Assembly: GCA_020697515.1 (NCBI GenBank)
Contig: JAIXNB010000025.1
Coordinates: forward strand, 1 to 19,041
Length of the DNA: 19,041 nt
DNA from: Nanobdellota archaeon
GTDB taxonomy: Archaea > Nanobdellota > Nanobdellia > Nanobdellales > Nanobdellaceae
Reading direction: 5' to 3'
Shown: positions 8,243 to 9,710 of the stretch, in pieces
Position numbering within the stretch: the first letter of the stretch is position 1
How the letters are laid out: each line of letters starts with the position of its first letter
Position numbers and translations under genes: made by a program
Notes under the pieces: model-generated
Database searches by the model: none
What the model saw: the letters and a program-made list of their open reading frames with translations, nothing else
What the model was told of the DNA's origin: nothing

Positions 8243-8327
8243 TGCGGGGGCGGGGATTCGAACCCCGGACGGGCCTACACCCATCGGGTCTTGAGCCCGA
8301 CCCCTTGGGCCGCTCGGGCACCCCCGC
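8243..8327 (-). tRNA. tRNA-Leu (anticodon CAA), class II with a long variable arm; no intron and no encoded CCA
   Basis: The minus strand reads GCGGGGG-UG-CCCGAGCGGCCCAAGGGG-UCGGG-CUCAAGA-CCCGA-UGGGUGUAGGCCCGUC-CGGGG-UUCGAAU-CCCCG-CCCCCGC-A. This is a complete cloverleaf with 64 of 85 nt G+C by hand count. Confidence 0.95.
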
Positions 8328-8329
8328 TA

Positions 8330-8345
8330 TTTTAAATTTTTATTA
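8330..8345 (+). promoter_or_regulatory. AT-rich TATA region (TTTTAAATTTTTATTA) for C/D candidate 1
   Basis: The possible TATA octamers are centred 22-30 nt upstream of the C box at 8364. Confidence 0.35.
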
Positions 8346-8348
8346 GCC

Positions 8349-8360
8349 ATAAATTTTTAA
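8349..8360 (-). promoter_or_regulatory. TATA region (TTAAAAATTTAT on the minus strand) for tRNA-Leu
   Basis: It is centred about 26-29 nt upstream of tRNA position +1 (8327). Confidence 0.45.
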
Positions 8361-8363
8361 GGA

Positions 8364-8412
8364 GTGAAGATGCCGAGGACAGCTGATTTATGATGATTCT
8401 CTGTTACTCAGA
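8364..8412 (+). ncRNA. Candidate box C/D sRNA (candidate 1)
   Basis: The sequence reads GUGAAGA (C variant, 8364-8370), 12 nt (UGCCGAGGACAG), CUGA (D', 8383-8386), UUU, AUGAUGA (C', 8390-8396), 12 nt (UUCUCUGUUACU), CAGA (D variant, 8409-8412). The 12/3/12 spacing is exactly the canonical archaeal layout. It lies in the spacer between tRNA-Leu and apgM. Confidence 0.55.
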
Positions 8413-8422
8413 CACAGATAAA

Positions 8423-8450: not shown

Positions 8451-9710
8451 ATGGGTTACAAAACACTTTTCATTATTTTGGATGGTGTTGGTGATCACAT
8501 CATTAAAACCTTTCATGGTAAAACACCACTAGAAGCTGCGAAAAAACCCAACATAGATAAGCTTTGTCGTTTTGCAGAATGTGGTGTCGTGTCGCCTGTA
8601 GACATTGGTGTCGTTCCTGGAAGCGACACTGGGCATCTAGGCCTTTTTGGATATGATCCCTATAGATATTATCCCGGTAGGGGGGTTTTTGAGGCGCTTG
8701 GACTGAATATCAAGTTAGAGGAAGGAGATATAGCGTTTAGAGTCAACTTTGGAACTGTTGATAATAATTTTTTAATTATTGATAGAAGAGCCCAGAGAAA
8801 TCCAGAAGGAATAGATTCAATAATTAAAGAATTTAATAGTAAAGTTGGTGAGATTGAGAGCAAATACGGTGTTAAGATCATTCTAAAACATGGAGTAGAA
8901 CATAGAGGTGTGCTTGTAATAAAAGGGAAAAATTTATCCAATAAGATATCAGATATTGATGTACATAAAGTAGGAATTAAAGCAAAAGAAGTCAGCCCAT
9001 TAAATGATACAAAAAGTGCTAGGATAACTGCAGAGATTGTGAATAAAATAATAAGTTTATTTTATGATGTTTCTAAAAATCATGTAGCGAATGACAGAAG
9101 AAAAGAAAAAGGATTATTGCCAGTTAATTATTTGCTACTGCGTGGAGTATCAATGTATAAACCACTTAAAGATCAAGATACATTCTACAGTAGATATCAA
9201 CTTAAACCGGTATTTATTGCTGGCGCCCCAATGTATTTAGGTGTTGCAAAATATGTTGGAATGGATACTATAAAACCTGCTGGTGCAACTGGGACTGTAA
9301 ATACCTCTTTAGTATCCAAAGCTGAATCCGCTATATCGGCTAGACAAAAATACGACATAATTTTTGTACATATAAAGGCAACTGATACATTATCACATGA
9401 TAAAAACCCAAAAGGTAAGAAAAAATTTATAGAGCTTATAGATCAACGATTCTTCAGCAGAATAAAGGATGAATTTGATATAATTGTTTTAACTAGTGAC
9501 CATACGACGTCCTCCATTTTGGGAGAACATACAGCAGACCCTGTACCAATAATGATATATTCTGTAGAAGATATAATTCATAGAAAAGATTCTGTAAAAA
9601 ATTTTGCAGAAAGAAAATGTTATAAAGGAATTCTAGGACATTTAAAAGGCATACATATCATACGGCTTATTCTGAATAAAATAGGAAAGGGGATCAAATA
9701 TGGTACGTAA
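8451..9710 (+). CDS. apgM: 2,3-bisphosphoglycerate-independent phosphoglycerate mutase, archaeal type
   Basis: The N-terminal LFIILDGVGD, then PGSDTGHLGLFGYDP, and the C-terminal LTSDHTT...HTADPVP are typical of the archaeal ApgM family. Confidence 0.92.
   Translation: MGYKTLFIILDGVGDHIIKTFHGKTPLEAAKKPNIDKLCRFAECGVVSPVDIGVVPGSDTGHLGLFGYDPYRYYPGRGVFEALGLNIKLEEGDIAFRVNFGTVDNNFLIIDRRAQRNPEGIDSIIKEFNSKVGEIESKYGVKIILKHGVEHRGVLVIKGKNLSNKISDIDVHKVGIKAKEVSPLNDTKSARITAEIVNKIISLFYDVSKNHVANDRRKEKGLLPVNYLLLRGVSMYKPLKDQDTFYSRYQLKPVFIAGAPMYLGVAKYVGMDTIKPAGATGTVNTSLVSKAESAISARQKYDIIFVHIKATDTLSHDKNPKGKKKFIELIDQRFFSRIKDEFDIIVLTSDHTTSSILGEHTADPVPIMIYSVEDIIHRKDSVKNFAERKCYKGILGHLKGIHIIRLILNKIGKGIKYGT

Follow-up and report, generated by a model that had tools for sequence, protein, structure and literature searches.

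The question raised by this locus is whether the short interval between a tRNA-Leu gene and apgM in the genome of an uncultured nanoarchaeon encodes a methylation-guide RNA. An earlier note, made from the letters of the sequence, had proposed a box C/D sRNA at positions 8364-8412. The window, that is, the whole stretch of DNA that was analysed (19,041 nucleotides), is contig C39 of a 469-kb genome assembly (55 contigs, 32% G+C, 76% completeness); the genomes of the relatives used for comparison have sizes of 0.4-0.8 Mb. Among these relatives is Nanoarchaeum equitans itself (G017), so that the host of the window can be assigned to the nanoarchaeotes. With high probability, positions 8360-8415 of the plus strand encode a box C/D sRNA of ~55 nt that is an ortholog of NeqsR02 of N. 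equitans, a relative of Rfam sR45 and a double guide for 23S rRNA.

Layout of the element

The boxes and guides are all on the plus strand, at the coordinates proposed before. The C box GUGAAGA (8364-8370), which departs from RUGAUGA by an A at position 5, is followed by the 12-nt D' guide TGCCGAGGACAG (UGCCGAGGACAG as RNA; 8371-8382). The D' box CUGA (CTGA in the DNA; 8383-8386), the 3-nt spacer UUU (TTT; 8387-8389) and the C' box AUGAUGA (ATGATGA; 8390-8396) were read directly from the sequence, and their combination (CUGA-UUU-AUGAUGA, 8383-8396) forms the canonical internal D'/C' pair that had been described. The D guide TTCTCTGTTACT (UUCUCUGUUACU as RNA; 8397-8408) and the D box CAGA (8409-8412), a CUGA variant that is kept in the same-genus genome G001, complete the element. 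Both guides are exactly 12 nt long, as had been noted, and the architecture is 7-12-4-3-7-12-4 nt. The prediction of the mature sRNA (~55 nt, 8360-8415) is supported by the Rfam sR45 match and the alignment of orthologs.

The earlier note had seen no terminal stem flanking the boxes, and none was found here, nor any significant or competing stable fold of the element (z = 0.30). The missing stem is normal for nanoarchaeal sRNAs, since N. equitans C/D sRNAs have unpaired ends (Randau 2012, PMC3491384).

Genomic context and transcription

The gene for tRNA-Leu(CAA) (8243-8327) is located on the minus strand, divergent from the sRNA, and the plus-strand ORF at 8451-9710 was identified as apgM, cofactor-independent phosphoglycerate mutase, from its matches to PF10143 (1.9e-45) and PF01676 (9.9e-41); the element thus lies between the two genes that had been named as its neighbors. 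The AT-rich region reported 5' of the C box was also present, and contains TTTAAA at 8331-8336 on the plus strand, a putative box A for the sRNA. In N. equitans a TTTAAA box A is found ~26 nt upstream of transcription starts (Randau 2012, PMC3491384). Given this spacing, transcription of the sRNA probably starts near A8360, ~4 nt 5' of the C box, from the element at 8331-8336, and the predicted ~4-nt leader is close in length to that of mature NeqsR02 (5 nt). Another AT box, at 8349-8360 and ~27 nt upstream of the 5' end of tRNA-Leu, is the putative promoter of that gene. Two TATA-like elements occupy equivalent positions in G001, in which the order tRNA-Leu (minus), sRNA, apgM is kept despite divergence of the tRNA-to-C-box spacer. 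No strong oligo-T tract was found 3' of the D box, and the sRNA may arise by read-through into apgM followed by processing.

As it shares the strand of apgM, lies 38 nt before the start of that gene and has no strong oligo-T terminator after it, the element might instead be a cis-acting part of the apgM leader, for example a k-turn bound by L7Ae that regulates the downstream mRNA, with no stand-alone guide RNA being made; in a RIP-seq study L7Ae was reportedly bound to mRNAs in archaea. This is very unlikely. In six genomes from other genera of the family, tRNA-Leu adjoins apgM across a plain AT-rich spacer of 40-60 nt without the sRNA, and the orthologs in N. equitans and in G016 (another family of the same order) occur in other, unrelated contexts. 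Conservation extends to the guide sequences, beyond the boxes alone, and processing out of a leader would still give a guide RNA. Such differing contexts fit the sRNA gene mobility described by Randau 2012 (PMC3491384).

Comparison with chance

The whole 469-kb genome was scanned using regular expressions, with the reversed genome and 20 first-order Markov simulated genomes serving as controls. The strict layout given in the earlier note was found three times in the genome and a looser C/D layout 15 times, while neither occurred in the reversed genome or in any of the 20 simulations. Counts this far above the controls indicate that the genome holds a real population of C/D sRNA genes, to which the element at 8364-8412 belongs. 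That short box-like motifs had come together by chance in AT-rich intergenic DNA might be suggested by the shortness of the boxes, two of the four deviating from consensus. The empty controls, and the orthologs with conserved guides in three other genomes (one of them experimentally expressed), reduce the probability of this explanation to almost nothing, and it is considered effectively refuted. Genes for the sRNP proteins were identified in the genome, namely L7Ae (PF01248, 100.5 bits), Nop5 (PF01798, 213.9 bits) and fibrillarin (PF01269, 298.9 bits). Pattern matches in G024, G038 and G016 were rejected; they lie inside coding sequence and have no C' box.

Orthologs and relation to Rfam sR45

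A search with an archaeal covariance model had been recommended as a check. In a permissive scan the Rfam family sR45 (RF01274) matched positions 8360-8414 over the whole model (positions 1-55; E = 1e-4), but its score of 27.9 bits is under the gathering score of 40 bits. The core of the D' guide, GCCGAGGACA, is identical to the corresponding part of the sR45 model consensus. When 41 relatives were searched, the gathering score was passed by G017 (N. equitans; 42.8 bits) and by G016 (42.3 bits); the same-genus genome G001, at 33.8 bits, fell below it together with the window element. Because the window score is under the threshold, homology is argued from the orthologs and the common guide core. 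Model R1, a sequence model made from the four orthologs, gave 57.2 bits at 8361-8413, a circular value, since the window element is one of the four training sequences. The sR45 label used in one other study is presumably a Pyrobaculum name.

The aligned sequences are GUGAAGA-UGCCGAGGACAG-CUGA-UUU-AUGAUGA-UUCUCUGUUACU-CAGA in the window, AUGAAGA-UGCCGAGGACAG-CUGA-CAU-AUGAAGA-GUCUUCGUUACA-CAGA in G001, AUGAAGA-AGUCGAGGACAA-CUGA-UUA-AUGAUGA-GUCUUCUCUACU-CUGA in N. equitans, and GUGAUGA-AGCCGAGGACAG-CUGC-AGG-GUGAUGA-CGUCUCUGCUUCG-CUGA in G016. Apart from one extra base in G016 the alignment has no internal gaps, and all four genomes agree in 33 of its 55 columns, among them G13 and C15-A22 of the D' guide. 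Between the window and G001 the D' guide is identical at 12 of 12 positions and the D guide differs at four of 12; the D guides of the orthologs follow the common pattern nUCUyyGyUwCn. The element is therefore kept both within the genus (G001) and in two further families of the order. Conservation in related genomes, which the earlier note had left to be checked, was thus borne out.

The match in N. equitans (46922-46979) is the locus of C/D box sRNA2, for which 59,100 RNA-seq reads and a snoscan result of 'no prediction' are listed (Randau 2012 Additional file 2, PMC3491384), and for which PLEXY gave as D' target 23S rRNA Cm2086 in CTGTCmCTCGGCC (Randau 2012, PMC3491384). The same RNA is named NeqsR02 in Dennis et al. 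2015 (PMC4644070). Since the match coincides with a listed, expressed sRNA, the window element has as its ortholog a guide RNA that was detected by experiment.

NeqsR02 shares with the window element the 7-12-4-3-7-12-4 nt architecture, the A5 variant of the C box (AUGAAGA in NeqsR02), a common core of the D' guide (AGUCGAGGACAA against UGCCGAGGACAG), a D guide that starts nUCU, the same predicted D' target in 23S rRNA (Cm in CUGUC) and the lack of a terminal stem. They differ in the D box (CAGA in the window, CUGA in NeqsR02), at six of the 12 positions of the D guide, and in context, which is the tRNA-Leu/apgM spacer for the window and the NEQ052-NEQ053 interval for NeqsR02. Expression has been shown for NeqsR02 only. 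The window element and the NeqsR02 ortholog group have in common a D' guide directed at 23S CUGUCCUCGG, together with D guides of related sequence (nUCUyyG...), and very likely the element belongs to that group, i.e. it is a known kind of guide RNA, in a tiny-genome archaeon from a hot spring. The sR45 RNAs of Pyrococcus and other Thermococcales have a similar D guide (consensus CUCUUCGCUUCG), but their hosts belong to a different phylum-level lineage, and the terminal boxes of the window element are of a variant type (see below).

Three further genera of the family (g2-g4) gave no ortholog, either with model R1 or with the pattern GGGACAG...TGANGA. The R1 and pattern matches obtained there are other, non-orthologous C/D sRNAs. 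Weak sR45 matches in G004, G005, G007, G012 and G013 were set aside as a different sRNA with the guide GUUGCGCGCG.

Predicted targets in 23S rRNA

The earlier note had asked for the guides to be compared with the rRNAs and tRNAs of the genome. No target with at least eight Watson-Crick pairs to either guide was found in the genome's own 16S rRNA or in its 32 tRNAs. Its own 23S rRNA is represented in the assembly by ~190 nt of the 3' end, at the start of contig C27, and both predicted sites lie outside this fragment; 23S rRNA was not found in the G001 assembly. When G-U pairs were admitted, the scan of the guides against rRNAs gave too much background to be of use. Sites were placed on the 23S rRNAs of relatives, and E. 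coli numbers were assigned by 23S alignment, the strain used being shifted one position relative to K-12.

The D' guide pairs with N. equitans 23S rRNA at 11 of 12 positions, with 11 contiguous Watson-Crick pairs (CUGUCCUCGGCC), at the very site that PLEXY predicted for NeqsR02, and with the N+5 nucleotide paired. By the N+5 rule the predicted 2'-O-methylation site is thus the C of 5'-CUGUC-3' in 23S rRNA, equivalent to ~E. coli C1994 and to N. equitans C2086. The D' site falls at ~E. coli 1990-2001, and CUGUCCUCGGC would be expected at ~1990-2000 in the organism's own 23S rRNA.

For the D guide, the starting point was N. equitans, whose own D guide pairs with its own 23S rRNA at GGAAGAGAAGAC (10 Watson-Crick pairs plus one G-U, nine of them contiguous), 62 nt downstream of the D' site. 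The D guides of the orthologs all fit a target nnnnn(R)(R)AGAC, with AGACCCCGUG, which is universally conserved, at its end. From the window D guide, a 23S target 5'-(G/A)GUAACAGAGA-3' is predicted at ~E. coli 2052-2063, with N+5 at ~2056. We take this site to lie on the strand of helix 73 leading into the peptidyl-transferase loop. A first candidate for the D target, GUAACGAG, ~15 nt upstream of the D' site, was set aside, the D guides of the orthologs pointing to E. coli 2052-2063.

Metagenomes were scanned for GTAACAGAGA located 1-4 nt before CCCGTGAAGC. Two contigs only were recovered, one of which (L053) carries an archaeal 23S rRNA; it is nanoarchaeal, with 34% G+C and ~73% nucleotide identity to this genome. 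Its 23S rRNA reads GGGUAACAGAGACCCCGUG, including GGUAACAGAGAC, exactly at the position predicted for the D guide, and the window D guide pairs with it through 10 Watson-Crick pairs and one G-U, N+5 being paired; there is one mismatch to the window D' guide (CUGUCCCCGGUC). L053 comes from a more distant relative, and its 23S rRNA is the only one found to match the window D guide. As the scan was built around the prediction, the match is supportive, not decisive.

These data also bear on whether the element is a decaying or partly disabled copy, of which the RNA may still be made while one guide, most likely D, no longer directs methylation, so that at most a single-guide or chaperone-only role would be left. 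Of the orthologs, the window element does score lowest with sR45 (27.9 bits), its D guide differs from that of G001 at four of 12 positions and more from that of N. equitans, and the seeming absence of the ortholog from three genera of the family suggests that some relatives can do without the function. Against decay, none of the four boxes is damaged and the 12/3/12 spacing is unchanged, the D' guide is kept at 12 of 12 positions within the genus, the changes in the D guide correspond to a 23S variant (GGUAACAGAGAC) that really exists at the expected position in a related nanoarchaeon, and the G016 guide predicts the same 'AG' variant. Decay is accordingly judged improbable. The proposal of a box C/D sRNA is supported by the kept orthologs, by the published and expressed N. 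equitans counterpart, and by the pairing of the guides with the 23S rRNA of relatives.

Several observations were made on the same region of 23S rRNA. In genera g2 and g4 (L068, L077, L069 and L073; G012, G007, G004 and G005), in which the NeqsR02 ortholog was not found, an sRNA is present with the D guide AUUUUACCCAUU or similar. Guides of this type pair with 23S AUGGGUAAAA (~E. coli 2049-2058), on the same helix-73 strand and ~4 nt further upstream. The equivalents of E. coli 2057-2059 (the macrolide-site region) vary in nanoarchaeal 23S rRNAs, reading AGA, AAA, CAG or GAA in the alignments (L053 12796-12816), and the D guides of the sRNAs appear to track this variation. Contig L053 also carries an archaeal RNase P RNA at 8755-8993 (92.4 bits); N. 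equitans, by contrast, is known to have no RNase P (Randau 2012, PMC3491384).

Off-consensus boxes

Position 5 of the C box and position 2 of the D box are the partners of the k-turn 3b.3n pair, normally U.U. In the window element both positions are A (UGAAGA and CAGA), and the tandem G.A/A.G nucleotides are intact. The earlier note was right that each terminal box deviates from consensus by one base; the two deviations co-vary and are typical of the lineage, as follows, and do not count as a weakness. The A5 variant of the C box recurs in the orthologs of G001 and N. equitans, and 10 expressed sRNAs of N. equitans carry it as well. For the terminal pair of the 25 expressed N. equitans sRNAs (C-box position first), the counts were A/A 8, A/U 2, U/A 0, G/U 0 and U/U 15; for the terminal and internal modules of 15 loci in this genome they were A/A 11, A/U 5, U/A 1, G/U 1 and U/U 12. 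The Fisher p-values of 4e-5 and 8e-4, respectively, overstate the co-variation, as the sRNAs are not phylogenetically independent. The genome scan was not biased towards co-variation, because all box combinations were admitted. The D box CAGA goes with UGAAGA in all eight N. equitans terminal cases and in 11 of 12 cases in this genome.

NeqsR08 (207,100 reads) and NeqsR16 (146,500 reads), which rank with the most abundant sRNAs of N. equitans, share their whole box set with the window element (GUGAAGA, CUGA, AUGAUGA and CAGA). Their guides are unrelated to the window guides, and hence they are not orthologs. Their abundance indicates that this combination of boxes is functional in terms of expression, and, together with the co-variation, it argues that the terminal boxes represent a lineage-typical variant and not decay.

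One module of each type is present in 10 of the 15 sRNAs here and in ~17 of the 25 in N. equitans; in the window sRNA the arrangement is flipped, with the A.A module terminal and the U.U module internal. It is conceivable, though on balance rather unlikely, that A.A and U.U box pairs form a code by which partners are specified in stem-less nanoarchaeal sRNAs, as opposed to neutral drift. If true, the code would ensure pairing of C with D and of C' with D', or would give the sRNP an orientation. The systematic pairing of A.A and U.U box variants in these stem-less sRNAs might repay study.

Proposed function

If assembly proceeds as in archaeal sRNPs that have been characterised, L7Ae would bind at the two k-turn modules, C/D and C'/D', after which a Nop5 dimer and two fibrillarins would assemble on the L7Ae-bound modules. 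In the terminal module, UGAAGA and CAGA would replace the usual U.U pair at 3b.3n by A.A, as is common in Nanoarchaeota. Once the two 12-nt guides are paired with 23S rRNA, 2'-O-methyl groups would be added by fibrillarin to the nucleotides that face the fifth guide position, counted upstream from D' or D. The target of the D' guide would be the C of 5'-CUGUC-3', and that of the D guide ~E. coli 2056, ~60 nt downstream. With two sites so near each other, the RNA would act as a 'double guide' and may also aid local folding of the rRNA. For this organism we infer expression, the promoter, assembly of the sRNP and methylation at both sites.

One more methylation-guide RNA is thus identified with confidence in an uncultured nanoarchaeon of reduced genome, and one of its two predicted 23S sites is beside the peptidyl-transferase loop. 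Retention of the NeqsR02/sR45 guide pair in several nanoarchaeal lineages argues that both 23S sites matter despite extreme genome reduction. Such genes are missed by automated annotation: the Rfam gathering threshold fails here, and snoscan was blank for the N. equitans ortholog. Scanners for C/D sRNAs should accept UGAAGA and CAGA boxes for the nanoarchaeal lineage.

Further observations on sRNA and tRNA genes

Just 3' of tRNA-Leu in G016 (L014, contig C2), a different C/D sRNA is encoded on the reverse strand, AUGAUGA-GCACUGGGGUUC-CUGA-AC-AUGAUGA-CUAGCAAACCAU-CUGA, and the flanks of tRNA-Leu are seemingly a recurrent landing place of sRNA genes. In genus g2 the tRNA-Leu genes (L022-L025, L028 and L031) have an insertion of ~15-20 nt after the anticodon region (e.g. 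...cgggtttcttaccaactaaggtcttaag...), probably a tRNA intron, that is absent from the tRNA-Leu of the window.

A second C/D sRNA was found in the window at 1088-1136 on the minus strand, AUGAAGA-GGCUGUCCCAGU-CAGA-AUAA-UGAAGA-AGGAGAGACGAC-CUGA. Its D' guide has an 11-nt run, GGCUGUCCCAG, in common with that of sR04 from N. equitans (GGCUGUCCCAGG), so that it is probably the ortholog of NeqsR04. Other candidate C/D loci in the same genome are on contigs C3 (2410-2464), C4 (3687, 3735 and 5241), C6 (10276), C8 (5070), C22 (1140, 1294 and 8511-8565), C23 (75), C34 (2064), C35 (9312), C44 (2083), C46 (4208) and C55 (9498). Two of the C4 loci adjoin directly at CUGAUGAUGA. The C8 locus is 16 nt 3' of a tRNA, and may be compared with the dicistronic tRNA-Val/sRNA8 of N. 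equitans.
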